From Candidatus Neomicrothrix sp. UBA6944 (lineage in GTDB: Bacteria; Actinomycetota; Acidimicrobiia; Acidimicrobiales; Poriferisodalaceae), in assembly GCA_002448715.1 (NCBI GenBank), contig DJZU01000095.1:22179-86178 (forward strand): a stretch of 64,000 nt of DNA. The letters are read 5' to 3'. A program made the translations under genes and the position numbers. The notes beneath the pieces are model-generated. The model saw only the letters and a program-made list of their open reading frames with translations, made no database searches and was not told the origin of the DNA. Below, in pieces: positions 2 to 47,121 of the stretch; positions within the stretch are counted from its first letter, which is position 1, and each line of letters begins with the position of its first letter.

Positions 2-1072
2 GCTGCCCGCGCATACCTTCACCCCGTTCTCAACCGCCTTAATTTGACCGTCCAGACTCGGGCCCACGTCGAACGTCTGATCATGACTCAAGGAAAGGTG
101 GTTGGCGTTGAGACACATGAACGCGCAATCTTGGGTTCGCGGGGTAAATCAAAGAAATATTTTGCCCAAACGGTGATCTGCTGTGCCGGGGCGATCAACA
201 CGCCTCACCTACTTCAACTGAGCGGGATAGGCCCCACTAGCGTGCTCGAACCGGCGGGCATAACAGTTCGCCATGATTTACCCGGTGTGGGTGAAAATCT
301 CCAAGATCATCTAGAGGTCTACGTCCAGCACGCTGCCGTGAAACCAATTACGCAGCAACCAAACCTGTCGCGGTGGCGTCGCCCGTGGATTGGCTTGCAG
401 TGGTTGATGCGGCGTGGGCCCGCGGCAACGAATCATTTTGAAGCGGGCGGTTTCATTCGCTCGTCGACGCAGGTCGCTTACCCAAACGTGATGATTCACT
501 TTCTCCCGCTAGCGGTTCGATATGACGGCACGGTTGCAGCTGCGCCTCACGGATTTCAGCTTCATGTTGGGCCTATGAACGCTCGCTCGCGGGGCTCGGT
601 GCGCCTCAGGTCCGCTGACACCTTCACAAAGCCCCAGATCAGCTTCAATTATTTGGACAACGAGGCAGATAGGCGGGACTGGGTCGATGCTGTCAAAACA
701 GCCCGGAATATTTTGGAGCAGCCAGCTTTGGCGAAAATCAGTGAGGGAGAGTTATCGCCAGGACCTGAGGTTAAGTCCGACGAACAGATTCTCGAATGGG
801 TACGCAGCGATTGTGAAACTGCCTTGCATCCGTGCGGTACCTCCAAGATGGGTGTTGACAATTTATCCGTGGTGGATCCCCTAACGATGGGCGTACACGG
901 CGTTCCGGGATTAAAGGTGGTCGATGCGTCCGTGATACCTACAATCACCAATGGCAACATATATGCGCCCACGATGATGATTGCAGAGAAGGCCGCCGAT
1001 CTTATTTTAGGTAACACGCCGCTGGAGCCCGAGGCTCCGCCTTATTTTCTTGCCAGCGACGACGAGACTTAA
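2..1072 (+). CDS. betA: GMC-family FAD oxidoreductase, choline dehydrogenase-like (C-terminal ~356 aa; 5' end outside window)
   Basis: The frame is open from base 2 (AARAYLHPVLNRLNLTVQT...), so the Met listed at 44 is internal. GMC C-terminal signatures are present: HPCGTSKMG and VVDASVIPTITNGNIYAPTMMIAEKAADLI. Confidence 0.85.
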   Translation, partial: AARAYLHPVLNRLNLTVQTRAHVERLIMTQGKVVGVETHERAILGSRGKSKKYFAQTVICCAGAINTPHLLQLSGIGPTSVLEPAGITVRHDLPGVGENLQDHLEVYVQHAAVKPITQQPNLSRWRRPWIGLQWLMRRGPAATNHFEAGGFIRSSTQVAYPNVMIHFLPLAVRYDGTVAAAPHGFQLHVGPMNARSRGSVRLRSADTFTKPQISFNYLDNEADRRDWVDAVKTARNILEQPALAKISEGELSPGPEVKSDEQILEWVRSDCETALHPCGTSKMGVDNLSVVDPLTMGVHGVPGLKVVDASVIPTITNGNIYAPTMMIAEKAADLILGNTPLEPEAPPYFLASDDET

Positions 1073-2366: not shown

Positions 2367-3242
2367 CTATTTTGCAGACTGCTCTGAGTCAGAAGAGGGC
2401 GCTCGATATACCGGTGCTTGGACGTACTGCCAACCAAAACGCCCTTTGACGCATAAGTGCCCTGAAGTTACTGAATGATCCGCTGGGGATGTGACCTTTA
2501 CGATCTGGTTGTCTTGGGTGTGAAGCTCGAGAGTGCACCCAACGCCGCAATATGAGCAGATTGTTTCGGTGACGGACTGCTCTTCTGGTCGCCAGTTCGC
2601 AGCTTCGCGCATGTCGAACTCGGTCTTAAATTGAAGAGCATTGGTGGGACAGACTCCAATGCAGTTTCCGCAGTACACACAGGCCGATTCGGGTAGCGGC
2701 ACATCGTGTTCCGTCGAGATCTTCGCGTCGAAACCACGGCCCGCTACGGCGATAGCGAAGGTGAACTGAGCGTCATCACCGCACGCTTCGACACACTTGT
2801 AGCAGAGAACGCATCGCTCGTAGGCGCGAACGAATAAGTCGTCTTCTACTTTCGGCGGTGTAGTGGTTTTAACTGGATCCGTGTAGCGATCGCTGTCAGC
2901 ACCGTAATCACTGATTAATTCCTGAAGGTTGTCACTCTGGCTGAGGTCATTTGCGCTGTCGAGGAGCTCTAGAACCATGCGTCGATTTTCTCGAACCCGA
3001 TCTGTGTTGGTCTTAACGGCGGCGCCATCTTCACACGTACGCGAGCAGGCGGGAATCAGCGTTCTAGCTCCTTCGGCTTCGACAACGCACAGACGGCATA
3101 CGTTTACTGGAGTGAGATTCTCAGCCCAGCAAAGTGTTGGAATTTCGATGTTCATGGACTGTGCGGCCTCAAGAATAGTGGTGCCTTCAGGAACAGTTAT
3201 TAGTTGGTCATCAATGTGTAATGAGACTGATTTGTTGCTCAC
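2367..3242 (-). CDS. Formate dehydrogenase Fe-S module (NuoG/FdsA N-terminal-like: 2Fe-2S, two 4Fe-4S ferredoxin motifs, molybdopterin-type Fe4S4 domain), encoded as a separate protein
   Basis: Motifs seen: CRLCVVEAEG, CVLCYKCVEAC, CVYCGNCIGVCP, CSYCGVGC...GHLCVKGRFGWQYVQ. The protein ends exactly where the molybdopterin domain normally begins. Its GTG start overlaps the upstream stop (GTGA). Confidence 0.85.
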   Translation of the reverse strand: MSNKSVSLHIDDQLITVPEGTTILEAAQSMNIEIPTLCWAENLTPVNVCRLCVVEAEGARTLIPACSRTCEDGAAVKTNTDRVRENRRMVLELLDSANDLSQSDNLQELISDYGADSDRYTDPVKTTTPPKVEDDLFVRAYERCVLCYKCVEACGDDAQFTFAIAVAGRGFDAKISTEHDVPLPESACVYCGNCIGVCPTNALQFKTEFDMREAANWRPEEQSVTETICSYCGVGCTLELHTQDNQIVKVTSPADHSVTSGHLCVKGRFGWQYVQAPVYRAPSSDSEQSAK

Positions 3243-4975
3243 GTCTGTACCCCTACTAGCCCCTCTGTGAACGCCGATTGGACGGCTGAGGCTGCGGTGT
3301 GGCCAAGTCCGCAGATAGAAGAGTCGCCCATGACCATAGAAAGATCAGAAAGCAGGACTCTCTCTGATTCGTTCGGTTGAGTACCTCTGATTTGGAGCAA
3401 CACTTCATGTTGACGCGTTGTGCCGATTCTGCAGGGGACACATTGCCCACAGGACTCGTCGCGGAAGAACTTCGCTAAACGCACTAACACCGACCAAAGG
3501 TCGACGTCTTTGGAAAACACGGTGACTGCGCCTGAGCCCAGGGTTGCGCCGCGCTCAGCGGTACCCTCGAAGGACAAGGGCAGATCGAGATTCGGGGGTG
3601 CTAGGAAGCGGCCCGCTGCTCCCCCAAGCAAGACCGCCTGGACGTCCTCGATCTGGACCCCTGCGACCTCAAGCAATTCATGTAGTGGAAGCCCGAATGC
3701 CGCTTCGTACAAGCCCGGATTGCCAACGTCGCCCGAGACGCAAAACAGCTTCGTCCCCGGCGAGTTGGGTGTACCGACAGAACGAAACACGTCGACGCCG
3801 TAGGTGGCAATGTCCAGCACATTGATGAGAGTTTCGGGGTTATTAACAATTGTCGGGCATCCGAAAAGGCCGCTCTCTGTCGGAAACGGGGGTTTGCTCC
3901 GCGGTTCGCCGCGAAATCCTTCAATCGAGTTAAACAGTGCAGTTTCCTCGCCACATATGTATGCACCGGCACCCTGGCGTAGCTCTATATCGAATGTAAA
4001 GGCACCATCGTGGACGTTGGCGCCAAGAAGTCCAGCTTGGTAGGCCTGTTCAATCGCAGATCGAAGCCGTTTTGTAGCTGTTGAGTATTCACCTCTTATG
4101 TAAATCCACCCCTTGGTGCAACCTGTAGCAAACCCAGCGATTGTCATAGCCTCGATCAGAGCGAACGGATCGTTCTCGATAATCATTCGATCTTTAAAGG
4201 TCCCCGGTTCGCTTTCATCGGCATTAGCGACGACATATTTTTGACGATGATCGTGGTTGGCTACGGTGCGCCATTTTCGCCCTGTCGGAAAGGCAGCACC
4301 TCCGCGTCCGGTAAGACCTGATTCTGTGACGAGACGAATAATCTCTTCTTGCCCAACCTCTATTGCCGTTTTGAGCGCCTGATAGCCACCGTGTTCGCGA
4401 TAAGACCTCAGGCTTTGGGGATCAACCAAGCCGAATCGGCGGAGCAGCCGGTTCGCTAACGTAGCGTTGAACTTTTGTTCAGTTTCCCCAGTAGACGCCA
4501 TGTCAACTGGATCTGAGCTTCTCGCTTGAATGAATAGAGCCGGAGCGTTCTCGCATTGACCAAGACATGGACCCTCGTGGACGTTTTTCCCTTCCGCTCG
4601 CAATTGTTGGGCGTAGCCTGACGCATCAGCCAGCGCACAACTCGCATCAACACACACATGATGTCGTGGGCCTGGCATGTCAGGCTCTTCTAGCTCGAAG
4701 AGGTCATAGAAAGAGGCAACGCCGAACGCCTCTGCCGGCGGAACCTGCAGGCTCTCGGCAAGGTAGTTCAAGCCACCTGGAGATATCCAGCCCCTTGACG
4801 CGTTGAGGTCGTGCAGTCCCGGGAGTAAAAGGTGTCGGGCATCGCCAGCGCGTCTGATTCCTCCGAGGACCACCCGTTCGCTCTGTCTGACGACCGGTGG
4901 CTGTTCGACGAGCGCGTCTACCAATGCGCGCTCGTGATCATCGGGTTCTGCATCGCTGAACTTGAGATCAGGCAC
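3239..4975 (-). CDS. Fused NuoE-like (2Fe-2S) / NuoF-like (FMN, NAD, 4Fe-4S) diaphorase subunit of NAD-dependent formate dehydrogenase
   Basis: N-terminal part has VCVDASC...CLGQC (NuoE-type). It also has GRGGAAFPTGRKW (NuoF NADH/FMN site) and ESCGQCVPCR (4Fe-4S). The GTG start overlaps the upstream gene by 8 nt. Confidence 0.9.
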   Translation of the reverse strand: MPDLKFSDAEPDDHERALVDALVEQPPVVRQSERVVLGGIRRAGDARHLLLPGLHDLNASRGWISPGGLNYLAESLQVPPAEAFGVASFYDLFELEEPDMPGPRHHVCVDASCALADASGYAQQLRAEGKNVHEGPCLGQCENAPALFIQARSSDPVDMASTGETEQKFNATLANRLLRRFGLVDPQSLRSYREHGGYQALKTAIEVGQEEIIRLVTESGLTGRGGAAFPTGRKWRTVANHDHRQKYVVANADESEPGTFKDRMIIENDPFALIEAMTIAGFATGCTKGWIYIRGEYSTATKRLRSAIEQAYQAGLLGANVHDGAFTFDIELRQGAGAYICGEETALFNSIEGFRGEPRSKPPFPTESGLFGCPTIVNNPETLINVLDIATYGVDVFRSVGTPNSPGTKLFCVSGDVGNPGLYEAAFGLPLHELLEVAGVQIEDVQAVLLGGAAGRFLAPPNLDLPLSFEGTAERGATLGSGAVTVFSKDVDLWSVLVRLAKFFRDESCGQCVPCRIGTTRQHEVLLQIRGTQPNESERVLLSDLSMVMGDSSICGLGHTAASAVQSAFTEGLVGVQT

Positions 4976-6896
4976 GGTTGTTGCCCACCAACTTATCTAT
5001 CCGGATGGCGGCTGCTTTGAACTCGGCGGTGCCGCTTAAGGGATCCCATTGGTCGTTTGTTAGGAGGTTCAGGTCCACGAGTTCAGGGAAGTGAAACGTA
5101 GTAAAAGCGAGACCTTGGGCTTGGTCACTCTTGATGGAGACCGTCATCTCGACGCTGCCGCGGGGCGATGACACCGTCACACGCTCACCCTCGACCAGGC
5201 TTAACTCCTTGGCATCCAGATGGCTAATCTCCAGATCCACACCGGAACGGATCGGAGAGCTATAGCCCCGGGTCTGTACGCCTGTGTTGTAAGAGTCAAG
5301 GACTCGACCCGTCGTCAGCCGCAGCGGGTAGTCAGACGTCACCTTTTCTTTAGGGCCCTCGTGATTTGTCAAAGAGAATGGTGCCGGGTCATGGCCACCA
5401 AGATCTTCTTCCCAGAGCCAACCGTGGAGGTACTGCGTCCCTGGATGATTGATATCGGGACAGGGCCATTGCAGTCCTTCTCCTTGCTCCAATCTTGTGT
5501 ACGTCATTCCTTTGTGCATAGGTGAAAGTGAACGAAGTTCATCCCAAAGGTGTTCAGGGCTAGTCGTTGGCCAGGGCACACCGAAACGTTGGGCGAGGAG
5601 CCCGATGATTTCGTGGTCGTGACGAGTCCCTGATGGAGGTTCCAGAGCGGCTCTGACCCGTTGAACCCGACGCTCGCTGGAAGTTACGGTGCCGTCACAT
5701 TCTGCCCAGCCAACGGAGGCGGGTAACACCACATCGGCTAGCTCGGCTGTGCGAGTCATGAAAATATCTTGCACTACGAGAAGATCCAGGTTTCTCAGTA
5801 AATCTCTCGTGTGTCGCACATCAGCTTCCGAATCAGCGGGATTCTCGCCGATGATGTAAAGCCCCGTCAGCTCCCTCTTTGCCATCGCTTCGAACATCAA
5901 CGTTAAGTGCAAACCAGGTCTTGGATTCAAGGGGACTCCGTAGGCAGTTTCAAATTTGCGCAGCGCCGTCGGATCGTCAATGTCTTGGAAGCCGGGAAGC
6001 TTGTTCGGCAGGGCGCCCATGTCGCCCCCGCCTTGTACGTTATTTTGCCCCCTGAGCGGAACGAGCCCCGAGCCCCAGCGACCCACATGGCCGGTTAAAA
6101 GAGCAAGGTTGCAAAGCGAGAGTACGTTCTCTACGCCGTTATGGTGTTCTGTGATGCCCAGGGTCCAAAGAATCTGGGCTGTCGTGGCTGTTGCGTAGCG
6201 GTGTGCTAGGTCTTTGATGGTCCCAGCGTCCACTCCGGTGGCGCTGGCCGCGAAATCAAGCGTGTAGGGCTCCACATGCTCGACAAATGCCTCAAATCCA
6301 ATCGTCGAGTGCTCGATGAACCGGGTGTCGTGAAGGTCCGCCGCGATGATTTCGCGCGCTAAAGCGTTTGCTAGAGCAATGTCTGAACCGACATTAATGC
6401 CGAGCCACGTCTCAGCAAATTTTGCAGAATCAGTGCGGCGAGGATCAACGGCGTACATCGATCCACCATTGCGAATTCCCTTCAGCACATGATGAAAATA
6501 GATGGGGTGAGCAGCGCGAGCGTTCGATCCCCAGAGCAGGACAAAGTCTGCCTCTTCTACTTCCTTATATGAAGAGGTGCCGCCGCCGGCTCCGAACACT
6601 GTCGCCAGACCGACGACGCTGGGAGCGTGTCAAGTTCGATTACAGGAGTCGATGTTGTTTGAACCAATTGCGGTTCGCATAAATTTCTGCGCCGCATAGT
6701 TCATTTCATTGGTGCTTTTGGAGCAGCTGAATAGGCCCACTGCTTCGGGACCCTTGTTGGTCATTATCGCAGTGAAGCCTTGGACCACAGTGTCGAGCGC
6801 CTCATCCCAACCGACAGGCTCAAGCGATCCATTTCTTCTCACCAAAGGTGTGTTGAGCCTGGCTAGGGGTTCGGTCTGAACAGCACGTCTCTTCAT
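4968..6896 (-). CDS. fdhA: Formate dehydrogenase catalytic (molybdo/tungsto-pterin) subunit with in-frame UGA (candidate selenocysteine, codon 89); the ORF track splits it into 6630..7043 and 4968..6599
   Basis: Read-through gives ...GSNNIDSCNRT-U-HAPSVVGLATVFGAGGG.... The conserved Arg motif LRGQNNVQGGGDMG lies downstream. The N-terminus RLNTPLVRRNGSLEPVGWDEAL is the usual start of the molybdopterin domain. The start is taken at the ATG at 6896 (MKRRAVQTE...). The longer 7043 start would run into the divergent promoter. Confidence 0.85.
6589..6632 (-). promoter_or_regulatory. Candidate bacterial SECIS element downstream of the fdhA UGA (6630..6632)
   Basis: mRNA reads UGA CAC GCU CCC AGC GUC GUC GGU CUG GCG ACA GUG UUC GGA GCC. 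The stem GUCGUC/GGCGAC (one U.G pair) closes a GGUCU loop and starts 12 nt after UGA. There is outer pairing GCUCC...GGAGC. It resembles the E. coli fdhF mini-helix, whose GGUC loop I recall from memory. Confidence 0.65.
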
Positions 6897-7019
6897 TGGA
6901 ACTCCTGGGACGGAACGTCTACTCCAGTCTAGAAGCGCAAATGTGCGTGGTGGGTTTCTGCAACGGGCAAAACAACGCTCCTCACGAGGATCTTTCCGAG
7001 TTTGGGCTCGAGCGACTAC

Positions 7020-7033
7020 GTGGAACGTTCCAC
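7020..7033. promoter_or_regulatory. Perfect 14-bp palindrome GTGGAACGTTCCAC in the fdh/iclR divergent intergenic region (candidate operator)
   Basis: The self-complementary sequence is read directly. It lies 29-42 nt upstream of the iclR ATG (7062) and 124 nt upstream of the fdhA ATG. Confidence 0.45.
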
Positions 7034-7061
7034 AATGTGGCACACTCGCGTAGAGGTGAAT

Positions 7062-7805
7062 ATGCCGGCAGTTCAGTCAGTCCAAAGGGCGTTCGCTATC
7101 TTGCGAGCGCTAGCGGGATCACCGATGGGCGTTACTCAGCTCTCCCAATCGGTGGGTCTTCCTAAGAGTACGGTGGCTCGCCTCTTAGCGGCGCTAGAAG
7201 AAGAGCAAGCAGTCGTACAGGAGGAGGTCGGTGGAAAGTACGCGATTGGGGACGGATTGCTTGACGTAGTGGGCAATCTCTCCTCTGGACGGAATATTGT
7301 GTCGTTAGCGCGTCCCTTCTTAAGCGCATTAGCCTTCGAGATAGACGAGACAGCGGGAATAGCTGTCCGCGACGGTCATAACGTTCATTACCTTGGCCAT
7401 GTCGGGCCCGACACACAAGTGCAAGTCCGAGACTGGACGGGTGAGTATGCCCCCCTGCATTTAGTGCCGTCGGGGTTGGTCGCGCTCGCTCACTTACCGA
7501 GTGAGGAGTTGGACGAATATTTACAGGGTGGCCTACTGGGTACCACCGCTAAGAGTGTGATTAACGTCGACGACGTGCGTACACGCGTCAAGCAGGTGAA
7601 AAGTGTGGGTTACGCCTGGGGTTTCGAAGAGTTCGCCGCTGGAATTAATTCGGTGGCAGCACCTATCTATGGGCAAGACAATGATGTGGTCGCGCTTCTT
7701 CACATTCACGGTCCCGCTTATCGCTTTCCTGATCCCGACCGCACCCACGACTTAGGAGTTCGGTTAGTCGAAACGTGCGGTGAGTTAAGCAAAAGGCTTA
7801 TCTAG
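7062..7805 (+). CDS. IclR-family transcriptional regulator
   Basis: MPAVQSVQRAFAILRALAGSPMGVTQLSQSVGLPKSTVARLLAALEEE is a typical IclR wHTH. The C-terminal part looks like an effector domain. The RBS AGAGGTGA precedes the ATG at 7062, so the 7002 start listed in the track is rejected. Confidence 0.9.
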   Translation: MPAVQSVQRAFAILRALAGSPMGVTQLSQSVGLPKSTVARLLAALEEEQAVVQEEVGGKYAIGDGLLDVVGNLSSGRNIVSLARPFLSALAFEIDETAGIAVRDGHNVHYLGHVGPDTQVQVRDWTGEYAPLHLVPSGLVALAHLPSEELDEYLQGGLLGTTAKSVINVDDVRTRVKQVKSVGYAWGFEEFAAGINSVAAPIYGQDNDVVALLHIHGPAYRFPDPDRTHDLGVRLVETCGELSKRLI

Positions 7806-8791
7806 GTCGAAGTGCTATTGCCCCGGCGACGTTCAATTTCGGCGATTATCGCTGGCACAACCTCGTGAAGGTCGGCAATCACCGCATAGCCGGCTTTGGT
7901 AACCATGTTGGCCTCGGGGTCTGTGTTTATAGCCAGAATGTTCTTTGATGCCATCGCACCGACCCAGTGTTGGATTGCTCCGGAGATTCCGCAGGCAATG
8001 TAGATGTCAGGAGCTATTCGTGTCCCGGTCTGACCGACTTGGTCAGCGTGACTCCTCCATCCGTTGTTAGTAACAGCACGCGAGCAACCAACCTTGCCCG
8101 ATAGGAGCCCCGCTAGTGCTTCTAGCGAGGCAAACCCCTCAGCGGACCCCACTCCCCGGCCACCTGAAACAACTACTGCAGCAGTAGAAAGGGTGGTGCC
8201 TTCACTTAGAGTTACGCGATCTTGTACTAGCGAACGACATAGAACCGGGTCGAGATTCATTTCAATCGACTCAATTTGAGTTGCCGATGCGGCGGCAAGT
8301 GGCTCTGCTTCCACCGAATGATGCGCATAGGAAATAAAGAGTGACGAGGTGTCCAGGGTGACATCTTCTAATAGTGAGCCGCCCCATTGCATTCGGGTTA
8401 ACTCCCAAGCACCACTGAACTCGGCGTTAATGCAGTTCGCGACAAAAGGAATCTGAGCCCTCGCACTCGCCTGGGCAAGGATTTCGTTACCGCGGTCCGT
8501 CCCCGTAGCCATCACGACTCGGGCCTCTGTGAGAGAAAATAGTTCCGCCATGGCCTGGCCCCATAATTCGGGACCATAGTCAACGATTTGAGGGTCTAGG
8601 ACACTCACTGCTTTGGGAATGCCATGTTCCTCACACAAAGAGACAAATTCGGTGGTCGCCTCACCAATCACAACCGCGATAACAGGTTCATTTAGGTGGT
8701 CGCTAAGCCGGCGGGCCGCGGTGAGAGCCTCGCCTGCTGAGGGCGCGAGCTGCCCTTGATCATGTTCGACTACGACATAAACGCCTGCCAT
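7802..8791 (-). CDS. etfA: Electron transfer flavoprotein alpha subunit
   Basis: 329 aa. The C-terminal FAD-binding region reads VVVSGGRGVG...PDIYIACGISGAIQHWVGM. Confidence 0.9.
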   Translation of the reverse strand: MAGVYVVVEHDQGQLAPSAGEALTAARRLSDHLNEPVIAVVIGEATTEFVSLCEEHGIPKAVSVLDPQIVDYGPELWGQAMAELFSLTEARVVMATGTDRGNEILAQASARAQIPFVANCINAEFSGAWELTRMQWGGSLLEDVTLDTSSLFISYAHHSVEAEPLAAASATQIESIEMNLDPVLCRSLVQDRVTLSEGTTLSTAAVVVSGGRGVGSAEGFASLEALAGLLSGKVGCSRAVTNNGWRSHADQVGQTGTRIAPDIYIACGISGAIQHWVGAMASKNILAINTDPEANMVTKAGYAVIADLHEVVPAIIAEIERRRGNSTST

Positions 8792-9558
8792 TAGAGAACT
8801 CCGAGTTCTTCGAGAAGGTCCACAATCTTGGGGGCGGCGTCGCTGCTCGTGCCAAGAATCTCTGTTTCGATTACCGTCTCTTCGGGTTGATGAAGTCGTC
8901 TGCGCTGTTGGGCTCCCGGGGCGACCTGCGTCTCCCGTGCCGAGATTTCAGCTTTTTTAGAGGCCAGACGGCCTTTCATCGTTGGATATCGAGGCAGGTT
9001 GATCCCCTCCTTAACGCCGAGCACGGCAGGGATCTCAAGGGAATAGACCTCGTAACCTCCGTCCACTTCGCGACGCGCTGTAACACCCTGCACCCCAACT
9101 TCGATACCTTTGATTCCATTGACCGCTGGCCGACCCAAAGCGACCGCTACTCTGATTCCGACCTGATGACCTCCAGAGTCCGCCGATTCGTTTCCAAAAA
9201 GAATCAAATCAAATTGGCCTTGATCTGCCTCGAGCTCGGCGATGCTTTCGATGATGGCATCGGCTGTCTGTTGTGGGTCCCAATCAATTCCAGTGTCGTT
9301 GGACACTAGGACGAAGGCAGTGGCTCCGACACTCGCTGCATAGCGCAGTTGTTCTTCAGCCTCGGAAGGCCCCACCGTGAGGACCGTAACTCCACCGCCG
9401 TGTTGTTCGACGATCTGAGCTGCCTCCTCGACAGCACATTCCTCATGGGGACTAGTCGTAAAACCCAAATGGTTCGTATCCACGTTGAGCGAGTCCGGCG
9501 TAACGTTGATTCTTGACCCAGGCGCTGGAACGCGCTTTACGCACACAAGTATCCGCAT
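8791..9558 (-). CDS. etfB: Electron transfer flavoprotein beta subunit
   Basis: MRILVCVKRVP... is a typical EtfB N-terminus. 255 aa, and it overlaps etfA by 1 nt. Confidence 0.9.
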   Translation of the reverse strand: MRILVCVKRVPAPGSRINVTPDSLNVDTNHLGFTTSPHEECAVEEAAQIVEQHGGGVTVLTVGPSEAEEQLRYAASVGATAFVLVSNDTGIDWDPQQTADAIIESIAELEADQGQFDLILFGNESADSGGHQVGIRVAVALGRPAVNGIKGIEVGVQGVTARREVDGGYEVYSLEIPAVLGVKEGINLPRYPTMKGRLASKKAEISARETQVAPGAQQRRRLHQPEETVIETEILGTSSDAAPKIVDLLEELGVL

Positions 9559-9590
9559 TTATTTTCCTCGCCCCCTACTGTCTGCTGTCC

Positions 9591-12122
9591 TCAAGCCTTC
9601 ATCCGACCGTTGTCAGGGTCAAACACTGCCAGATTCGCCCCGGTCGCCTCCACTGTTACCGGATACAGCTCGTTTTGATACATAACCTGGAGCTTCGTTC
9701 CCCGATCACAAGCTTCGATGGGGAGATACGCCATCAGTAGATATTTACCGACCGAAGGTGCGTTTCCGGCCGTAGTTACTCGGCTCACTCGGCCTTTGGC
9801 ATCAACGAGACGTTCACCGGAGAGTGACAGGACTGGTTCGTTCCCGGCTCCCATAGGGAACCGCAAGTAGCCGGCCTCGCAATTAAGATCGTCTATGGAC
9901 AAGACGCAGAGTTGCGCACACAGGTCTGAATCTCGTGCCTTTAAGTATTCCGCCTTGCCGATGAAGTCTGCGGCCTTGACCTTTGGTCGAGCTAACCCTG
10001 CCTCGACGGGGTTGTATTCGTTTTCAAGTTCTGCGCCCATCAGTCGGTAACCCTTCTCCAGCCGGCCACTCGTCCCGTATACGGCTGCCCCCACCGGGCG
10101 AAGGTCACATGCGCCTCCGACTTCCATGATGGCGTCCCAGAGTGCCTGGCCGTGCTGCATCGCAGCGTAGATCTCGAATCCGCTATCACCGACGTAGGAG
10201 ACTCTAAACATTTCCGTCGGAAGGCCGGCCAACAGAACCTGCTGACAGGAACCGTAGGGAAATGCTGCTTGGTTGAGGTCTGTTTCAGTAATAGTGGCAA
10301 GTACTTCGACCGCCTTAGGCCCCCAAAGACCCAACGTGCAGATGGCATTTGTCCGATTTTCAAATTGGACGGACCCATCTCCGGGAAGATTATGGCGGAA
10401 CCAATACTCATCTCGGCCACCGTCGAAGGCGCCAGTGATAATACGAAAGCGACTCTCGGTAAGCCTCAGGATCGTTAGATCGGACCGGAAACCGCCTGAT
10501 GGGTTGAGCACTGGGGTGTAAATCGACCCGCCCACAGCCACGTCACATTTATTTACCACCATGTGTTCGATGTAGGGAAGAACTCCCGGACCTGAGACCT
10601 CAAAAATCTGAAAGGCCGAAAGGTCAACAATGCCAACGTGATCTCGCAGGTGGAGATGTTCTGCGTCCGAGATCGGGGACCACCACCGGCTATCCCACTC
10701 GTGCTGTCGCCCCTGTATCCCATAGGCATCTACTAAGTCTTGATTCGACTCATACCAGTGTGGGCGTTCCCAGCCTCCTGCCTCAAAATAGAACGCGTCA
10801 AGAGCGTCTGTTCGGGACTTGACTGGCCCAACGGTGACATCGCGTCGGCTGGCCCATTGCTCGCGTGGGTGCACAATCCCGTAGGTCTTGTTGAAATGCT
10901 CGTCGCATCGGGCCTCGATGTGGTGAACGTTCCGCTGGTGGGGGTAGAAGCGAGCGATATCGGCTCCGTGGGGATCAGTGAAATGTGGGTACCCGTCAGT
11001 CATCCACTCAGCAACAAGACGTCCGACGCCGGGTCCTTCTTTGATCCAGACTGCTGCAGCGGACCACAGGTTTTCCACCTCGACGGTGGGCCCGAGGACG
11101 GGATTCGCATCGGGCGTAAGAGAAAGAAGTCCATTGATGGCGTATTTGATCTCACCATCACCAAGAAACTCCATTAGCTCTATTGCTTCTTCCATCTGTT
11201 GGTCGAAGTCATCCGCAGTGAAGGGCATTTCGGTGGGACTCAACGCAGCTTCCTCATTTGAAGGGATCTCGTCTACCCGGTGAAGAATTGGCCGATGTGC
11301 GTAGGAGCCGACCTCCATGGACCCTGCGGTTTGGCGTTCGTAACAGAAGGTGTCCATGTCGCGCACTATTGGATAGGCCAACTCTTGCTGTGTTTCAACC
11401 AGTACGTCGAATGGCCCGACGTCGGCCATCTGATGAACCGCAGGTGTCAACGGGATCGTAGCTCCTGCCATCTCAGCAAGGCGCGGGCTCCAGACACCGC
11501 ATGCGATGACCACCGTTTCGCATTCGATCCTCCCCTTGTCGGTGAGAACAGCAGTGATCTTCGGCTTGTTGGTTCCGTGGGCCGTCTCGATGTCAATAAC
11601 TTCCGTATTGGCAAAGACCTCTAAATGGCCGGCTTCTTGGGCCTTTTTGCGCATTTGAGTGCCCGTTTCTAACGAGTCGACGGCGCTTACGCTCGGGGTG
11701 TAGAAGCCGCCCAAAATTACGTCTTCCGAAATAAAGGGCACCAGGTCCTTGACCTCCGCAGGGCTGAGTAAGGTCGACGGAATTCCCCAACATTTAGCCG
11801 AGGTCATTCGGCGTTTGAACTCTTCCATCCGTTCTTCTGAGCGCGCTACTTCGATTCCTCCACAGGTGTTTTGGAGGCCGAGCTTTTCGTACTGCCGTTG
11901 GCTCTCCAGTGTCAGATCGACTATTTCCTTTGAGTGATCGCACGGGAAAATGAAGTTGGATGCGTGTCCCGTGGAGCCGCCCGGATTCGGCAAGGGACCT
12001 TTGTCGAGAAGCACGATGTCTTCCCACCCCATATCACTGAGGTGCCCGACCAAGCAGTTGCCCACTATCCCGGCGCCGATTACAACACAGCGGGCTCTCG
12101 ATGGAAATTCGCTCACTCTCAA
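9591..12122 (-). CDS. Dimethylglycine/sarcosine dehydrogenase family protein (FAD oxidoreductase fused to a GcvT-like THF-binding aminomethyltransferase domain)
   Basis: 843 aa. It has an N-terminal Rossmann fold, VVIGAGIVGNCLVGHL...LLDKG. The C-terminal half is GcvT-like (FEVSGPG..., SYVGDSGFEIY). It lies directly upstream of etfBA on the same strand. Confidence 0.8.
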   Translation of the reverse strand: MRVSEFPSRARCVVIGAGIVGNCLVGHLSDMGWEDIVLLDKGPLPNPGGSTGHASNFIFPCDHSKEIVDLTLESQRQYEKLGLQNTCGGIEVARSEERMEEFKRRMTSAKCWGIPSTLLSPAEVKDLVPFISEDVILGGFYTPSVSAVDSLETGTQMRKKAQEAGHLEVFANTEVIDIETAHGTNKPKITAVLTDKGRIECETVVIACGVWSPRLAEMAGATIPLTPAVHQMADVGPFDVLVETQQELAYPIVRDMDTFCYERQTAGSMEVGSYAHRPILHRVDEIPSNEEAALSPTEMPFTADDFDQQMEEAIELMEFLGDGEIKYAINGLLSLTPDANPVLGPTVEVENLWSAAAVWIKEGPGVGRLVAEWMTDGYPHFTDPHGADIARFYPHQRNVHHIEARCDEHFNKTYGIVHPREQWASRRDVTVGPVKSRTDALDAFYFEAGGWERPHWYESNQDLVDAYGIQGRQHEWDSRWWSPISDAEHLHLRDHVGIVDLSAFQIFEVSGPGVLPYIEHMVVNKCDVAVGGSIYTPVLNPSGGFRSDLTILRLTESRFRIITGAFDGGRDEYWFRHNLPGDGSVQFENRTNAICTLGLWGPKAVEVLATITETDLNQAAFPYGSCQQVLLAGLPTEMFRVSYVGDSGFEIYAAMQHGQALWDAIMEVGGACDLRPVGAAVYGTSGRLEKGYRLMGAELENEYNPVEAGLARPKVKAADFIGKAEYLKARDSDLCAQLCVLSIDDLNCEAGYLRFPMGAGNEPVLSLSGERLVDAKGRVSRVTTAGNAPSVGKYLLMAYLPIEACDRGTKLQVMYQNELYPVTVEATGANLAVFDPDNGRMKA

Positions 12123-12350
12123 TCCTTTAGTTACGCAAAAGCAGTAGTCGGAGGCTAGCTCTTACGGGCATCCCTTAGGCAACAAGAAGCTCTCTGCCCG
12201 CGCTTTAGACCAAGGACCTGCCTGAACCGCGAATTCTGTATGATGGAACAATTCCGTACAGTGAAACAGTATTGGGCCCAGGGTCACACTGTTCAAGGAA
12301 CGTTTCTGGTCCCGTCCTCAGGCGTGACAGTTATGGGAGAGGTGAGCTCC

Positions 12351-14048
12351 ATGTCGATACCAAGCGATCTGGAAATCGCTAGCCAAGCACAGTTGCGGCC
12401 TTTGAGTGACGTCGCGTCCTCAATGGGGATTCCGCTGGACAATCTGGAGCTATACGGAACCGGGTCCGCGAAGATTCAACTAGAAGCAATTGAAGAGCTT
12501 TCCCAGCGGCCAACTGCGAAATACGTGGTGGTGTCTGCTATTACTCCGACGCCGCTTGGAGAGGGAAAGACCACTACGACGGTCGGGCTAGGGCAGGCTT
12601 TTAGCCACATCGGTAAATCCGCGACGATAGCGATCCGTCAACCGTCTATGGGACCCACCTTTGGGATAAAGGGCGGAGCGGCCGGTGGCGGCTACAGCCA
12701 GGTTGTACCGATGGAACTGTTCAATCTTCACTTAACCGGCGACATGCACGCTGTGACTGCCGCCCACAACATGTGCGCTGCCGTGTTGGATGCGCATCTT
12801 TTCCACGGCAATCAACTCGGTCTTGACCTCCACAACATCACTTGGCGACGCGTCCTTGATGTCAATGACCGGGCTTTGCGAAACGTGACTCTCGGGCTTG
12901 GCGGTCGCCTTGACGGCATCCCTCGCGAGAGCGGATTTGATATCACCGCAGCCTCGGAAGTAATGGCGGCGTTGGCGCTTGCGACATCGCTACAAGATCT
13001 TCGCCAAAAGATGGGCAACATCGTCGTCGGCTACACCAAGGACAACACGCCTGTAACCGCAGAAGATCTCGGTGTCGCTGGCGCCATGACAGTCATCCTA
13101 AAAGAGGCCGTTAAACCGAACCTTATGCAGACCCTTGAAGGCACGCCGGCGTTAGTACACACGGGACCCTTTGGAAACATAGCGACTGGTAACTCTTCCA
13201 TCGTTGCTGATCAGATCGGCATCAAGTCTGGTGACTTCCTCTTGACCGAAGCTGGTTTCGGCGCTGATATGGGCGCTGAACGATTTTTCAACATCAAATG
13301 CCGCTACTCAGGGTTAAATCCAGATGCCGCTGTTCTTGTTGCCACTGTGAGGGGACTCAAAGCCCATTCCGGTAAACACAAGATTGTGGCTGGGCGACCA
13401 TTGCCTGGGGCCCTCCTGCAGGAGAATCCAGATGAGGTTCACGCCGGCGGTGACAATTTACGTAAACAATTGGAGAATATGCAGATCCATGGAGTTACTC
13501 CAGTAGTCGCAATCAACACCTTCCCAGATGACAAAGAGAAGGATCTTCAAGCGATAGTCGAGATCGCCGAGGAATACGGGGCTCGCTCTGCAAGATGTAC
13601 GCACTTTGCAGATGGCGGCATTGGTGCGACGACCCTCGCTGAAGCCGTCGACGAGGCAGCCTCGGAACCGAGTTCATTTGCTCCGCTCTATGAGGACGCC
13701 CTCCCGTTACGCGACAAAATAACGACAGTTGCCCAGCGCATCTATGGCGCGCAAGGCGTGTCGTTCAGTTCCAAAGCCAACAAACAGCTCGATAACTATG
13801 AGGCAAATGGGTTCGGCAATCTGCCGGTCTGTGTCGCCAAAACGCATCTCTCGATTTCTTCGGACCCGAAGCTTCTCGGTGCGCCCACCGGATGGACTCT
13901 TCCAGTGCGCGAAGTACGGGCATCAGTCGGCGCGGGTTTTGTGTACCCAATTTGTGGTGACATGAGGACCATGCCTGGATTGGGAAAAAGTCCCGCGGCC
14001 CACCAAATTGATATCGACGGCGACGGAAATGTCGTCGGTTTAAGCTGA
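12351..14048 (+). CDS. fhs: Formate--tetrahydrofolate ligase
   Basis: The FTHFS P-loop PTPLGEGKTTTTVGL is present. With an ATG at 12351, preceded by RBS GGGAGAGGTGAG, the length of 565 aa fits the family. The 12240 start in the track adds a non-homologous 37 aa. Confidence 0.93.
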   Translation: MSIPSDLEIASQAQLRPLSDVASSMGIPLDNLELYGTGSAKIQLEAIEELSQRPTAKYVVVSAITPTPLGEGKTTTTVGLGQAFSHIGKSATIAIRQPSMGPTFGIKGGAAGGGYSQVVPMELFNLHLTGDMHAVTAAHNMCAAVLDAHLFHGNQLGLDLHNITWRRVLDVNDRALRNVTLGLGGRLDGIPRESGFDITAASEVMAALALATSLQDLRQKMGNIVVGYTKDNTPVTAEDLGVAGAMTVILKEAVKPNLMQTLEGTPALVHTGPFGNIATGNSSIVADQIGIKSGDFLLTEAGFGADMGAERFFNIKCRYSGLNPDAAVLVATVRGLKAHSGKHKIVAGRPLPGALLQENPDEVHAGGDNLRKQLENMQIHGVTPVVAINTFPDDKEKDLQAIVEIAEEYGARSARCTHFADGGIGATTLAEAVDEAASEPSSFAPLYEDALPLRDKITTVAQRIYGAQGVSFSSKANKQLDNYEANGFGNLPVCVAKTHLSISSDPKLLGAPTGWTLPVREVRASVGAGFVYPICGDMRTMPGLGKSPAAHQIDIDGDGNVVGLS

Positions 14049-14057
14049 GGGAGTGCG

Positions 14058-14927
14058 GTGTCGGTCTTCCCGAGCAAGGAACTGCCAGGCGACAAGGCCC
14101 ACCGCCGTGAGCTACTGGATCGAGCCCGCTTTGAGGTGATCCCTTTAAAGAATCTTACGAACCAGCTCCCCTTTCTGCCGCCCGGCACGGAGGTATCGGT
14201 CACCGCGTCTCCCGCAAAGACACTTGAGGACACTTGGTCGCTGAGCCGTGATTTGTTCGAAATGGGGATGAAACCGATTCCCCATTTGGCGGCCCGAATG
14301 ATCACGAGTCGAAATCAGCTTCGGATGTTGATTGAGCAGTTACCCGATATCGGGGCCTCAGAAATATTTCTGGTTGCCGGCGACGCGCCGGAGCCGTTCG
14401 GGCCGTTTACCGATTCCCTGCAAGCGCTCGAAACCATTCTCGAGTTAAACCATGGACTGACCCATATTGGGGTCAGTGCATATCCCGATGGCCACTCCCT
14501 CATTGATTCACGGGTGCTTTCGGAGAGCCTCCACAAAAAGGAGGCGTTTCTGCAAGCCAGCGACATCGAAGGGCATGCAGCGACCCAAATGTGCTTCGAT
14601 CCAAGCACCATTCGTAGCTGGCTTTCCGAAGAGCGCAAGGGCGGGCTGGCTTTACCAGTGCATTTGGGCATCCCAGGAGTCGTTGAGCGCACGAAGTTGC
14701 TGTCAGTCGGCGCAAAGCTAGGGGTCGGAGCCTCGCTACGTTTCCTCAAGAAAAATCGTGCAACCCTGACGCGGATGTTCGCTCCAGGTGGATATAACCC
14801 CGACAAGCTCCTGGGGCCGCTAAATCCTGATCTCAAACAACTCGGAGTCGAAGGGCTACACGTTTTCACGTTTAATCAGGTGCAAAGCACGGTCGCTTGG
14901 CGCGCGCAGGCACTTGCCCGAAGTTGA
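14058..14927 (+). CDS. metF: Methylenetetrahydrofolate reductase
   Basis: 289 aa with MetF-like TIM-barrel sequence (EVSVTASP..., FLVAGD..., HLGIPGV). The GTG start is preceded by GGGAG. Confidence 0.75.
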   Translation: MSVFPSKELPGDKAHRRELLDRARFEVIPLKNLTNQLPFLPPGTEVSVTASPAKTLEDTWSLSRDLFEMGMKPIPHLAARMITSRNQLRMLIEQLPDIGASEIFLVAGDAPEPFGPFTDSLQALETILELNHGLTHIGVSAYPDGHSLIDSRVLSESLHKKEAFLQASDIEGHAATQMCFDPSTIRSWLSEERKGGLALPVHLGIPGVVERTKLLSVGAKLGVGASLRFLKKNRATLTRMFAPGGYNPDKLLGPLNPDLKQLGVEGLHVFTFNQVQSTVAWRAQALARS

Positions 14928-37240: not shown

Positions 37241-37810
37241 TTACTTCACCCACGGACCGCTTTGTCCACTTTCGTAGTGGTCAGGTCGTATACCGAATGC
37301 TTCAATCATCCGTTGCCAACCGCTCCCGACCGCAAGAAGCGCCCCAAGGCGAAGAATCTCAACTTCCGAAAAATGTTCACGTAAACGTGCGTGAAGTTCG
37401 GCGGGTATTGGGCCCTTAGGGGAACCCGATAGGTGCTCACTGAACTGCACAGCGGCCTTCCAAGCTTCAGGTAAGTCAGAATTTTCATAATCTGAGAGCT
37501 GAGCGACTACCTCATCTGTGAGACCAGAGCGCACCAACGATGCGCTTTTAACCATGCTTCAATGGAAACATTCGTTCACATTTGCCATTCGAATTCGACA
37601 GAGTTCAATCATTTGGCGATCAAGCCCTGACTCGCCGCCGTACATAAGGCCGACCCAACCAAGGAACATTTCTAAGGTCAGGTCATCATTAGCCAGCGTA
37701 CGAAAGAGGTTGTCGTCTTTGTAGGCCTTCGCATACCAGGTCTCAAGCCGCGCTCGCTGGTCGTCGCTTAAATTGTCAAGTTTGGGTAGGTGCCCTAGTT
37801 GATTAGCCAA
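37241..37810 (-). CDS. Carboxymuconolactone decarboxylase (CMD)/AhpD-like protein with in-frame UGA (candidate selenocysteine, C-F-H-U); the ORF track splits it into 37559..37810 and 37241..37555
   Basis: Read-through gives ...LCRIRMANVNECFH-U-SMVKSASLV..., 189 aa. The UGA (37559..37561) falls where the family has the second Cys of CxxC. Both halves look like one CMD domain, and neither half alone is a plausible protein. Confidence 0.75.
37528..37561 (-). promoter_or_regulatory. Candidate SECIS hairpin downstream of the CMD-like UGA
   Basis: mRNA reads UGA AGC AUG GUU AAA AGCGCA UCGUUGG UGCGCU. A perfect 6-bp stem (37546..37541 with 37533..37528) carries a 7-nt G-containing loop and starts 12 nt after UGA. 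Confidence 0.6.
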
Positions 37811-41108: not shown

Positions 41109-41882
41109 GTGAACGAGACGATGCCCTCAACACATAAGAGATGGAAGCCTACTTTGCGTCGCTTTGGGGTTACCTTCTTGCTGTGTTGCTGTCTTCTAAT
41201 GGGCGGGTGTCGACATTCCGAGAAGGATTTTAAGATATTTGTTGCTTCCTCAATGACTGAATTCGTTGACATCTTGCTTCCAGAGTTGACCGATCGATAT
41301 CCGGGACTTCAGGTGCAGATCAACATCGCTGGCAGCGGCACTTTGGTGAACCAAATCGTTGAGGGCGCTGATGCCGATGTCGTCTTATTGGCCGGAGCCA
41401 ACCACATGGCGCGACTTCAGGCTGAGAACGCGTTTCTTCCCCCAGTGCCCATCGCCCGCAACAGCCTTACGGTTGTCGTCAGTTCAAACCTTGCCGAAAG
41501 CGTGACAACTATTTCAGATCTGCGAGATGCTGGGTTACAGGGCGCTGTGTGTGTGCCAGGCGCGCCCTGTGGCGAGTTGGCGGTTGCATTTGCCAGAGCA
41601 GTTAATCTTGATTTGTCCAATGCAACTAGGGAGCCGAACGTCAAGGCAGTGCTATCTAAGGTGGTTAGAGGAGAGGTCGACTACGGGTTCGTTTATCGTT
41701 CCGATGCACTAATGGCCGCCAACGAGGTGAAGGCAATTGAGGCTGAGGGGTTAGATTCGTTCACCACGTCATACTCCCTTGCGTTGAAAAATTCCGACGA
41801 GGTCTCCGTTTCATTCCTTGAGGTTGTCACCCAATCGAAAGTGTCAAGGGTCCTAGAGGAACTCGGGTTTCTAAGTCGATGA
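41109..41882 (+). CDS. modA: Molybdate ABC transporter substrate-binding lipoprotein
   Basis: Lipobox LLMGGC and ModA-like motifs (FVASS..., AGSGTLVNQI) are present. It is followed by modBC with overlapping stops and starts. Confidence 0.8.
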   Translation: MNETMPSTHKRWKPTLRRFGVTFLLCCCLLMGGCRHSEKDFKIFVASSMTEFVDILLPELTDRYPGLQVQINIAGSGTLVNQIVEGADADVVLLAGANHMARLQAENAFLPPVPIARNSLTVVVSSNLAESVTTISDLRDAGLQGAVCVPGAPCGELAVAFARAVNLDLSNATREPNVKAVLSKVVRGEVDYGFVYRSDALMAANEVKAIEAEGLDSFTTSYSLALKNSDEVSVSFLEVVTQSKVSRVLEELGFLSR

Positions 41883-42661
41883 GGAGTCAACTGCCCTTGC
41901 GTATTCGCGTAGTTGCACTTTTGGTGGTGGCGCTCGTCGCAGCGCCTGTTATTTCACTTTTGTGGCGGGTTCCTTGGTCGCGAATGAGCTCTCTACTGAC
42001 GGAAGAAGTAGTTACAGATGCCATCTCGTTATCGCTAATCTCAAGTGTCCTGGCGGCAGTCGTCGCATTGACACTGGGCGTACCGGTGGCACTGCTTCTT
42101 TCTCGAATGGAAGGTGTACTTGCGTCAATCACGAGAGCGTTGATGATGCTTCCAATGGTGCTTCCTCCGGTTGTCGGTGGCGCCGCACTCTTATTTGCCT
42201 TTGGGCGAAGAGGAACGCTCGGAGCGGCCCTTGAAGAAGTTAGCGGACTGGTGCTTCCATATTCACTTGCTGGTGTTGTCCTGGCTAACGCGTTCGTCGC
42301 CTTGCCTTTCGTGGTGTTGACGATTGAAGGATCCCTTCGCACTTTGGATCCGCGCTTCGAACTCGCGGCAGCATCTCTCGGCGCGAATCAATTTCACACG
42401 ACAGTAAAAGTTGTCCTTCCAATGGTGAGGAGTTCCCTAATAGCCGCTGGTTTTCTTGCTTGGGCTCGCGCCCTTGGCGAGTTTGGAGCGACAATTACCT
42501 TCGCTGGCAATGTTCCTGGCAAGACCCAAACCCTACCCCTGGCGGTTTTCGTGGCAATGGAAACCGACCAGGAGGCAGCACTGGTGATGAGCGTGGTCTT
42601 AATTTTGGTCTCGCTGGTAGTTCTGCTTACCATGCGCGATAGGTGGTGGCCTTCGCGATGA
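41879..42661 (+). CDS. modB: Molybdate ABC transporter permease
   Basis: Polytopic protein with EAA-type loop ELAAASLGANQFHTTVKVVLP. Confidence 0.85.
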   Translation: MRSQLPLRIRVVALLVVALVAAPVISLLWRVPWSRMSSLLTEEVVTDAISLSLISSVLAAVVALTLGVPVALLLSRMEGVLASITRALMMLPMVLPPVVGGAALLFAFGRRGTLGAALEEVSGLVLPYSLAGVVLANAFVALPFVVLTIEGSLRTLDPRFELAAASLGANQFHTTVKVVLPMVRSSLIAAGFLAWARALGEFGATITFAGNVPGKTQTLPLAVFVAMETDQEAALVMSVVLILVSLVVLLTMRDRWWPSR

Positions 42662-46437: not shown

Positions 46438-47121
46438 ATGGCACCTGAGAGCTCGACCCTAAAGAAAGGGTCTCGTGTTGTAGTCATCACTGATCTGCCT
46501 GGCGTTTCTGCCGGCACCACTGGCAGAGTCGGTCGATCAATCGGTGTCAAAACAACCCGCTACCGGGTCAAGTTTGACAATGGCGTTGATGTCTTGTCCG
46601 TTGCTGAAGGAAAACTCGTCTCAACAGCGGCCTGGGAATTCCTTAAACAAGGTCAAATCGGTGACGGTCCCAAGATAAGCCAAGGAGCGGTTCCCGCCGC
46701 GGTTCCCGTCGGAGCCGCCCCGGCTCAGGCTCCACCACCTGCGACACCTCAACCGGCTCAAACACCACCTGAGACAACTCCCCCTGACCCACCCACCGCA
46801 AAAGAGCCCGAAGCTCAGGCTGCTACTGACTCCGGAGACACAAGCGAGGATCCTCGCCTCGCCGCTCTGACTGCCAAATCGCGAGGCGCTCGCAAGGCGG
46901 CAGGTATTGACGTCGACGCCGAAGACAGTGCTGCACCTGACACTCAAACGGATGCGCAAGCAGATGCGTCGGAAGACGAGGTCGACGAGCCGGAGACCGT
47001 GACCGCTAACGCTTCAGAGGTGGAGTCAGACTCGGGGCCCTCACTGCCTGATCTGCCAGACGGCTACTATCCATCCGATAACCGAATTGCTGACCTACTC
47101 GCTTCTGTCAAACAGGGTTAG
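46438..47121 (+). CDS. Hypothetical protein: small N-terminal beta-rich domain plus a Pro/Ala/Thr-rich and acidic disordered tail
   Basis: 227-aa ORF. Residues ~85-215 are low complexity (APAQAPPPATPQPAQTPPETTPPDPP..., DAEDSAAPDTQTDAQADASEDEVDEPE). Confidence 0.5.
   Translation: MAPESSTLKKGSRVVVITDLPGVSAGTTGRVGRSIGVKTTRYRVKFDNGVDVLSVAEGKLVSTAAWEFLKQGQIGDGPKISQGAVPAAVPVGAAPAQAPPPATPQPAQTPPETTPPDPPTAKEPEAQAATDSGDTSEDPRLAALTAKSRGARKAAGIDVDAEDSAAPDTQTDAQADASEDEVDEPETVTANASEVESDSGPSLPDLPDGYYPSDNRIADLLASVKQG

Follow-up and report, generated by a model that had tools for sequence, protein, structure and literature searches.

A probable selenocysteine codon with its own recoding hairpin in the split formate dehydrogenase of a marine actinobacterial lineage

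The DNA analysed here, hereafter the window, is a 64,000-nucleotide stretch from Candidatus Neomicrothrix sp. UBA6944 (contig DJZU01000095.1, positions 22,179 to 86,178), and it carries on its minus strand a gene, fdhA, for the catalytic subunit of a formate dehydrogenase (FDH) that is interrupted by a single in-frame TGA. We propose that this TGA (6632..6630) encodes selenocysteine (Sec) in the FDH active site and that it is recoded through a hairpin at 6617..6601, which would act as a selenocysteine insertion sequence (SECIS); we give this reading a probability of roughly 0.93. The proposal draws on the reading frame, homology, active-site alignment, the pairing of Sec with Cys among relatives, conservation and covariation at the RNA level, and linkage of orthologous genes to the sel genes. 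If it is right, the correct annotation is one 642-residue selenoprotein, neither two fragments nor a pseudogene. The elements concerned are as follows.

4968..6896, minus strand: fdhA, catalytic subunit of FDH with a Mo/W-bis-pyranopterin guanine dinucleotide (bis-PGD) site; 642 residues on read-through, with Sec at residue 89
6630..6632, minus strand: UGA codon 89, read as Sec, the predicted Mo/W ligand; aligned to X140 (Sec) of 1aa6 and to X of 9t1s
6627..6629, minus strand: codon CAC for His90, the predicted catalytic His after Sec; aligned to FdhF His141
6051..6053, minus strand: codon for Arg282 in LRGQNNVQG, the predicted catalytic Arg; aligned to FdhF Arg333
6601..6617, minus strand: putative SECIS mini-helix; 5' arm GUCGUC 6617..6612, loop GGUCU 6611..6607, 3' arm GGCGAC 6606..6601
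6589..6626, minus strand: possible, weakly supported outer helix, GCUCC 6626..6622 with GGAGC 6593..6589, seen in the minimum-free-energy (MFE) fold of 44 nt
6902..6906, minus strand: AGGAG, a likely ribosome-binding site lying 5 nt upstream of the start ATG (6896), as judged by reading the sequence
T-U-HAPSVVGLATVFGAGGGTSSYK, from translation: tryptic peptide expected from the UGA site if it is read as Sec

Results

One interrupted gene at a formate dehydrogenase active site

Read directly on the minus strand, fdhA opens with the ATG at 6896 and terminates at TGA 4970..4968, and on translation the TGA at 6632..6630 is the sole interruption of its frame. The pieces that flank it, of 88 and 553 codons, lie in a common frame, as an earlier note on this DNA had stated when it described a minus-strand TGA splitting the catalytic open reading frame (ORF). 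The read-through peptide is ...NIDSCNRT-U-HAPSVVGLATVFGAGGG..., with LRGQNNVQG further downstream. The same note expected gene callers to report two fragments, and this is what they do: public contigs with the same sequence as the window have fdhA split into proteins of 88 aa and 543 aa, and the best 120 homologues in the database (68-100% identity) are all C-terminal fragments, 450-558 aa long and mostly 539-558, that cover 70-85% of the fdhA query. Because all 120 begin past the break, gene callers appear to break the whole clade at one place, and hundreds of database entries in this clade would need the same correction.

A lone in-frame stop in an intact gene resembles a fresh nonsense mutation or an error of sequencing or assembly, in which case fdhA would be a pseudogene or its TGA an artefact. 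However, identical fdhA protein pieces are present on 37 contigs from independent assemblies, the window lineage being one of marine Actinomycetota metagenome-assembled genomes seen in TARA Oceans assemblies. Moreover, 48 other typed loci have TGA at this codon, between flanks of 55-72% identity that are under purifying selection, and no further frame disruption is found. The independent contigs and the conserved TGA effectively refute this explanation, to which we assign next to no probability.

Pfam searches with both fdhA pieces return Molybdopterin (PF00384) and Molydop_binding (PF01568), and the joined protein matches TIGR01591 (Fdh-alpha) over model positions 52-672 with 613.7 bits (E = 3.4e-184). 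This score falls just under the curated equivalog cut-off of 666.25, short of a full-length assignment, because model positions 1-51 are absent from the polypeptide; judged by the profile match, the catalytic module is a member of TIGR01591 and the polypeptide is a split variant. The closest solved structures are all FDHs, namely 9t1s (F420-dependent), 7qv7 (FdhF of a hydrogen-dependent CO2 reductase), 1aa6 (E. coli FDH-H) and 6tg9 (NAD-dependent FdsA). The FDH signature C-x-R-x-(U/C)-H-x-P-S and the downstream catalytic Arg motif LRGQNNVQG, both recognized in the earlier note, hold up in the structural alignment, in which the TGA falls on Sec140 of FDH-H, the following His on H141 and Arg282 on R333. 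The gene has the features of a Sec-type FdhA, with a UGA at the metal-ligand position, His directly after it (U-H-x-P) and the catalytic Arg present; UHxP is the motif listed for FdhA in a published compilation (PMC13188914).

Codon 89 in related loci

Eighty related loci were drawn from species-representative genomes, and the codon at the TGA position was read directly. In the typed near clade (n = 60, comprising 57 loci at 52-72% identity, L004 and L064 at 64-65% and the distant L060 at 45%), codon 89 is TGA in 48 loci and TGT or TGC in the other 12, with no other sense codon. The TGA-type loci carry labels that include Actinomycetota, Acidimicrobiia, Verrucomicrobia, Chloroflexia, Planctomycetota, Gemmatimonadetes, Acidobacteriota and Sulfobacillus; the TGT and TGC types are actinomycetes (Streptomyces, Nonomuraea, Nocardiopsis, Amycolatopsis and Sphaerisporangium). 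We read this distribution as a classic Sec/Cys pair. The earlier note had held that a sense codon other than Cys in relatives would speak against Sec, and none occurs among the 60 loci; the alignment to Sec- and Cys-type FdhA/FdhF sequences that it proposed as a check returned both the match to Sec140 and the Sec/Cys pair in homologues.

Across the related loci, the ten codons from the TGA to the next possible start keep the peptide H-A-P-S-V-(V/A)-G-L-(A/T)-(T/A). Within these codons, the third positions of Ala and Pro take all four bases and Ser alternates between AGY and UCN. As the peptide is kept despite synonymous drift, the ten codons past the TGA appear to be translated and to be under selection at the protein level. 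Moreover, 23 of the 56 genes in the window end in TGA, more than in any other ordinary stop, and the code therefore does not appear to be reassigned.

These ten codons bear directly on the possibility that the TGA is a true stop and that the enzyme is assembled from two polypeptides, one of 88 aa and one of about 543 aa starting at GTG 6599. Gene callers yield exactly those two ORFs, and the family already tolerates one split, with an Fe-S domain on a separate gene. Yet the ten codons that precede this first restart are among the most conserved of the protein, change only synonymously, remain in frame and include the catalytic His. In addition, the Cys-type orthologues are continuous across the break, the break falls exactly at the FdhF metal-ligand position, and the RNA-level constraint and covariation found after the TGA (see below) have no role in a simple split. 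We consider an enzyme of two polypeptides very improbable.

A mini-helix after the TGA

The candidate SECIS mini-helix has a 6-bp stem that begins 12 nt after the UGA and a loop that begins 18 nt after it. The bare element folds to -8.3/-8.5 kcal/mol (z = -2.46 versus shuffles). In the consensus model of bacterial SECIS elements (bSECIS), the loop has 3-9 nt and the upper stem 4-16 bp, a G is found within the first two loop positions, 16-37 nt separate the UGA from the loop, and the MFE is at most -7.5 kcal/mol (PMC13188914); an independent description gives a stem of 6-8 bp and, roughly 20 nt past the UGA, a conserved G in the loop (PMC4605307). The mini-helix lies within all the bSECIS limits with its 5-nt loop GGUCU, 6-bp stem and 18-nt spacing, and it fits the second description as well. 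Taken alone these rules are weak evidence, since hairpins within the same limits follow 5.5% of random TGAs in the window, and the window sequence by itself supports the hairpin only modestly above chance.

Comparison across species provides what we regard as the decisive support. Every one of the 49 TGA-type sequences keeps all six inner pairs, and the Cys types (n = 12) pair three to five of the six; a GGUCU loop is seen in 48 of 49 TGA types and in 1 of 12 Cys types. At third codon positions, the mean entropy in the TGA types is 0.31 bit within the hairpin and 1.75 bit in the flanks; the corresponding values in the Cys types are 1.00 and 0.99 bit. Over 47 distinct sequences the mini-helix is 100% paired, with two pairs that vary on both sides and two that vary through wobble. 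Pair 18-30 changes in a compensatory way from C-G to G-C in four species (GUG...GCC for GUC...GCG) and to U-A in one (GUU...GCA), and the closing pair 21-27 changes from C-G to G-C in one sequence (GUG/CUC for GUC/CUG). The covariation score is matched by 0 of 500 shuffles, and every slid register collapses. These observations support selection at the RNA level on the mini-helix only in genes of the TGA type. The stem GUCGUC/GGCGAC around a GGUCU loop, 12 nt past the UGA, had been picked out in the earlier note, and sequence, folding and comparison all agree with it.

The mini-helix recurs in the same register, with further compensatory pairs, in Sec-type FdhA genes of 40-45% identity. The variant in L060 is GUUGCC-GGUCU-GGCAAC, which we take to resemble the Moorella thermoacetica SECIS RNA used in SelB co-crystals; a text search of the literature for this RNA found nothing.

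The outer helix fares less well than the mini-helix. The 44 nt after the UGA fold to -17.0 kcal/mol with GCUCC/GGAGC as an outer and GUCGUC/GGCGAC as an inner helix, so that the enclosing helix described in the earlier note is present both in the sequence and in this fold. Over the 47 sequences, 90% of its cells are paired, but 17 of the 47 lack its sole variable pair, 9-42, and the helix is outcompeted in longer folding contexts. We regard it as an optional part of the predicted element.

A second candidate selenoprotein

A second gene in the window appears to combine an in-frame UGA with a hairpin of the same kind:

37241..37810, minus strand: AhpD/CMD-like candidate selenoprotein gene; 189 residues, TTG start, motif C-F-H-U
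37561..37559, minus strand: its in-frame UGA
37546..37528, minus strand: its hairpin, AGCGCAUC-GUU-GGUGCGCU, with 8 bp and a GUU loop

The hairpin starts 12 nt after the UGA and folds to -11.1 kcal/mol (z = -3.59). The Pfam CMD match of the protein is borderline (22.4 bits) and spans the motif. In the full-length homologues P0143, P0145, P0147 and P0148 a Cys is aligned to the TGA; nearer homologues are C-terminal fragments, and in the window gene callers would give only a C-terminal ORF of 104 aa. Both the TGA and the hairpin are kept in the related loci L083, L085, L086 and L087. Together, fdhA and the AhpD-like gene make use of the 21st amino acid by this lineage of marine Actinomycetota very probable, which would tie its oxidation of one-carbon (C1) compounds and methylated amines to the supply of selenium.

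Other in-frame TGA joins in the window were also considered. Of 29 candidates, 27 were rejected as same-frame neighbouring genes or as antisense or out of frame relative to real genes, leaving those at 6632 and 37561.

In L083, from Acidimicrobiia, a Redoxin/TlpA-like gene at 10422..10958 on the plus strand, directly after the AhpD-like gene, is split by a TGA within W-A-P-H-U-S-V-C (UxxC). This gene probably represents a third selenoprotein family of the lineage; the corresponding place in the window holds no counterpart.

Selenocysteine decoding machinery

In several relatives, genes for Sec decoding lie next to the orthologous FDH operon:

L017 9517..9610, L038 6669..6767 and L050 14795..14887: tRNA-Sec genes
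L038 4090..7906 and L050 5167..8899: selA/selB/selD, flanking the orthologous FDH operon

In L017 the tRNA-Sec gene precedes the orthologous fdhA, some 350 nt upstream; in L038 and L050 the two lie only a few kilobases apart. By tblastn, selA, selB and selD stand beside the operon in L038, and selA, selD and a selB-like stretch do so in L050; selD is also found in L052 and L022. Pfam confirms SelA and an AIR-synthase-type SelD in both L038 and L050 and a SelB winged-helix protein in L038. The selB of L050, seen by tblastn only, comprises two stretches that differ in frame, suggestive of a frameshift or of faulty assembly. The lineages in which tRNA-Sec and the sel genes cluster with the FDH operon are soil lineages labelled Actinomycetota or Chloroflexia. 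A 93-nt 'tRNA-Val' in L034 was considered as a missed tRNA-Sec and rejected, as it looks like GC-rich coding sequence.

Several results weigh against Sec insertion at codon 89. First, the machinery is not found nearby: the 64-kb window contains no tRNA-Sec, with ARAGORN finding no tRNA gene in it at all, and tblastn of the same 64 kb with E. coli SelA, SelB and SelD (used as probes only) finds no selA, selB or selD. The matches listed in a search with the SelA of L050 were all close relatives of the query, largely metagenome proteins (the few with a taxon name being from Thermoleophilaceae or Gaiellaceae), and none was linkable to the window organism. Second, an equally good hairpin that complies with the rules follows 3.8% of the 2187 TGA trinucleotides in the window. 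Third, no Rfam SECIS model matches, either at the gathering threshold on the whole window or at E <= 10 on 6450..6750; permissive Rfam scans of 6450..6750 and 37400..37700 gave only chance snoRNA-like matches. Finally, when more of the surrounding sequence is folded, its stability does not exceed that of shuffles (71 nt, z = +0.45; 53 nt, z = -0.66; 44 nt, z = -0.92), and contexts of 53-71 nt thermodynamically favour pairing with a downstream, GGN-rich run of Gly codons. In the folding check suggested in the earlier note, 44 nt give the two-helix structure it quoted, and 53 and 71 nt prefer the other pairing. As a functional fold, the pairing with the Gly-codon run was rejected, as all of its pairs are kept in only 2 of 49 sequences.

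The machinery missing from the window would also fit a different outcome, in which the UGA is recoded not, or not always, as Sec: Cys could be inserted through the Sec pathway at low selenium, Trp could be inserted by near-cognate decoding, or the gene could be dead after loss of the machinery. One AhpD-like homologue is indeed recorded with W at the TGA, probably by a caller using another code. Against such outcomes, the use of TGA as the main ordinary stop argues against a general reassignment, homologues invariably align a Cys here and never a Trp, and two genes in the window keep a UGA together with a conserved hairpin, elements that decay fast once the machinery is lost. We judge recoding to anything other than Sec, or a dead gene, to be highly unlikely. 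Sec decoding by the window organism is very likely, because two independent genes with a UGA and a hairpin lie within 64 kb.

Subunit architecture

Two further genes on the minus strand would complete the enzyme:

3239..4975, minus strand: NuoE/NuoF-like fusion, 578 aa, with 2Fe-2S, flavin mononucleotide (FMN)/NAD(H) and 4Fe-4S sites; overlaps the fdhA stop by 8 nt
2367..3242, minus strand: NuoG-N-terminal-like Fe-S subunit, 291 aa; Pfam Fer2_4, Fer4 and Molybdop_Fe4S4 (residues 223-275)

The fusion matches Pfam 2Fe-2S_thioredx, Complex1_51K and NADH_4Fe-4S, and TIGR01959 (nuoF_fam) with 439 bits. In the NuoG-N-like protein, residues 227-276 match TIGR01591 positions 1-50, the domain that is absent from fdhA. 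NuoF-, NuoE- and NuoG-like modules are therefore encoded together with the catalytic subunit, as in enzymes of the FdsABG/FDH1 type, and we infer that the window enzyme is a soluble NAD(P)-linked FDH with a split alpha subunit. The gene order of catalytic part, NuoEF and Fe-S part is kept in about 50 loci of both Sec and Cys types from many phyla; as almost every related locus keeps it, this order appears to be a trait of the family and not an accident of the window genome. No FdsC/FdhD or FdsD gene was recognised beside the operon on inspection by eye only. Literature searches returned no description of the split architecture and nothing relevant on Sec-containing FDH in Acidimicrobiia.

Gene neighbourhood

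The FDH operon lies among genes for the oxidation of methyl groups and C1 units (window 44..1072, 7802..14927, 47118..49322 and 57747..62617). These encode a GMC (choline-type) oxidoreductase, electron-transfer flavoprotein alpha and beta, an 843-aa protein resembling dimethylglycine (DMG)/sarcosine dehydrogenase, formate-tetrahydrofolate (THF) ligase, methylenetetrahydrofolate reductase, a dimethylformamidase-like protein and a glycine-betaine-type ABC transporter. Just outside the window, on a longer public contig, are an MttB-family methyltransferase and a corrinoid activation protein. From these neighbours, the enzyme likely oxidises formate that arises from the THF-linked demethylation of glycine betaine, dimethylglycine and sarcosine.

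Two further loci may be connected with the enzyme:

41109..43719, plus strand: modABC-like ABC transporter of the molybdate/tungstate type, made up of a binding protein (SBP_bac_11), a permease and a TOBE-domain ATPase
7002..7805, plus strand: IclR-family regulator, divergent from fdhA; a 267-codon ORF whose 5' part overlaps the upstream region of fdhA

The transporter fits an FDH that depends on Mo or W, and in L085 and L086 it is found in synteny with the AhpD-like gene. Public calls of the IclR-family gene are shorter (226 aa); its product may regulate the FDH operon.

Discussion

We propose the following sequence of events for expression of fdhA, of which the steps on the ribosome are modelled on established SelB biology. 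During translation, the mini-helix with its GGUCU loop would form just outside the mRNA entrance of the ribosome, where the C-terminal winged-helix domains of the SelB-GTP-Sec-tRNA(Sec) complex could dock on the G and U bases of the loop. SelB would then deliver Sec to the UGA in the A site, in competition with RF2, and the product would be one protein of 642 residues. In the folded enzyme, Sec89 would ligate the bis-PGD metal, with His90 and Arg282 completing the formate-oxidising site. The NuoE/NuoF fusion would carry the FMN and the NAD(H) site, and the NuoG-N-like protein would supply the Fe-S chain, including the 4Fe-4S domain missing from fdhA.

More broadly, the locus could belong to an uncharacterised and very widespread clade of soluble FDHs with split and permuted subunits, dependent on selenium in most of the sampled lineages (about ten phylum-level groups), including aerobic actinobacteria of the surface ocean that also carry an AhpD-like selenoprotein, and with a SECIS outside current Rfam models. 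We hold this wider picture only tentatively. If it were true, the last step in the oxidation of methyl groups from glycine betaine, DMG and sarcosine in the oxic ocean would require selenium as a micronutrient.

Comparison with known systems

The closest parallel to the recoding element is that of E. coli fdhF. FdhF shares the catalytic fold, and its Sec, His and Arg (U140, H141 and R333) are those aligned to the window residues. Both genes form a mini-helix after the UGA from Val-(Val/Ala)-Gly-Leu-Ala codons, with a loop that starts G-G-U. The earlier note had stated that the E. coli loop is made from the same GGU CUG codons at the same distance, and this proves accurate, the two codons occupying nt 22-27 in both genes. 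The E. coli string used for this comparison is found at >=99% identity in 5412 E. coli records, the best listed being 100%, and it lies inside a gene annotated as fdhF, selenocysteine-containing, with GGU CUG at nt 22-27. The two systems also differ. The folded E. coli loop has 4 nt (GGUC) on a helix with internal mismatches, whereas the window helix is an unbroken 6 bp that includes one U.G pair, and its loop has 5 nt. FdhF has its own N-terminal 4Fe-4S domain, which the window organism encodes on another gene. Finally, FdhF passes electrons to hydrogenase 3, whereas the partners of the window enzyme are NuoE/F/G-like.

A second parallel comes from mycobacteria, in which fdhA has an in-frame UGA with a SECIS immediately 3' of it and clustered sel genes together with selC, and is reported as the sole mycobacterial selenoprotein (bioRxiv 10.64898/2026.03.03.709296). 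The clustering resembles that of the sel genes and selC in L017, L038 and L050. In contrast to mycobacteria, where fdhA is reported to stand alone, the window holds a second candidate. AhpD-like and CMD-like proteins with a CxxU motif are listed selenoprotein families known from marine metagenomes (PMC13188914), and the AhpD-like gene of the window shares with them the CxxU motif, the borderline CMD match and a hairpin of the bSECIS type.

In its modules, the window enzyme is most like soluble FDHs of the FdsABG/FDH1 type, which combine a Mo/W-bis-PGD module with NuoE-, NuoF- and NuoG-like modules. Among solved structures, we take 6tg9 and 6tga to represent the FdsABG type of Rhodobacter capsulatus and 7vw6 and 7e5z the two-subunit FDH1 of Methylobacterium extorquens, whose beta subunit the 578-aa NuoE/NuoF fusion presumably resembles. 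In FdsABG/FDH1 enzymes, however, the metal ligand is Cys and the Fe-S domains are fused to the N terminus of one alpha subunit, about 950-990 aa long. By contrast, in the window clade a break in the alpha subunit separates the Fe4S4 domain from the first molybdopterin domain, the genes follow another order, and most lineages have Sec as the ligand.

No bacterial selenoprotein is more widespread than FdhA, and the FdhA SECIS serves as the reference element (PMC13188914). Set against this background, fdhA of the window is a canonical selenoprotein with a canonical recoding element and adds nothing new on the biology of selenocysteine itself. What is somewhat new is the combination in which it occurs: subunits split and permuted across many phyla, Sec in an actinobacterial lineage of the oxic ocean, and a SECIS without Rfam coverage.

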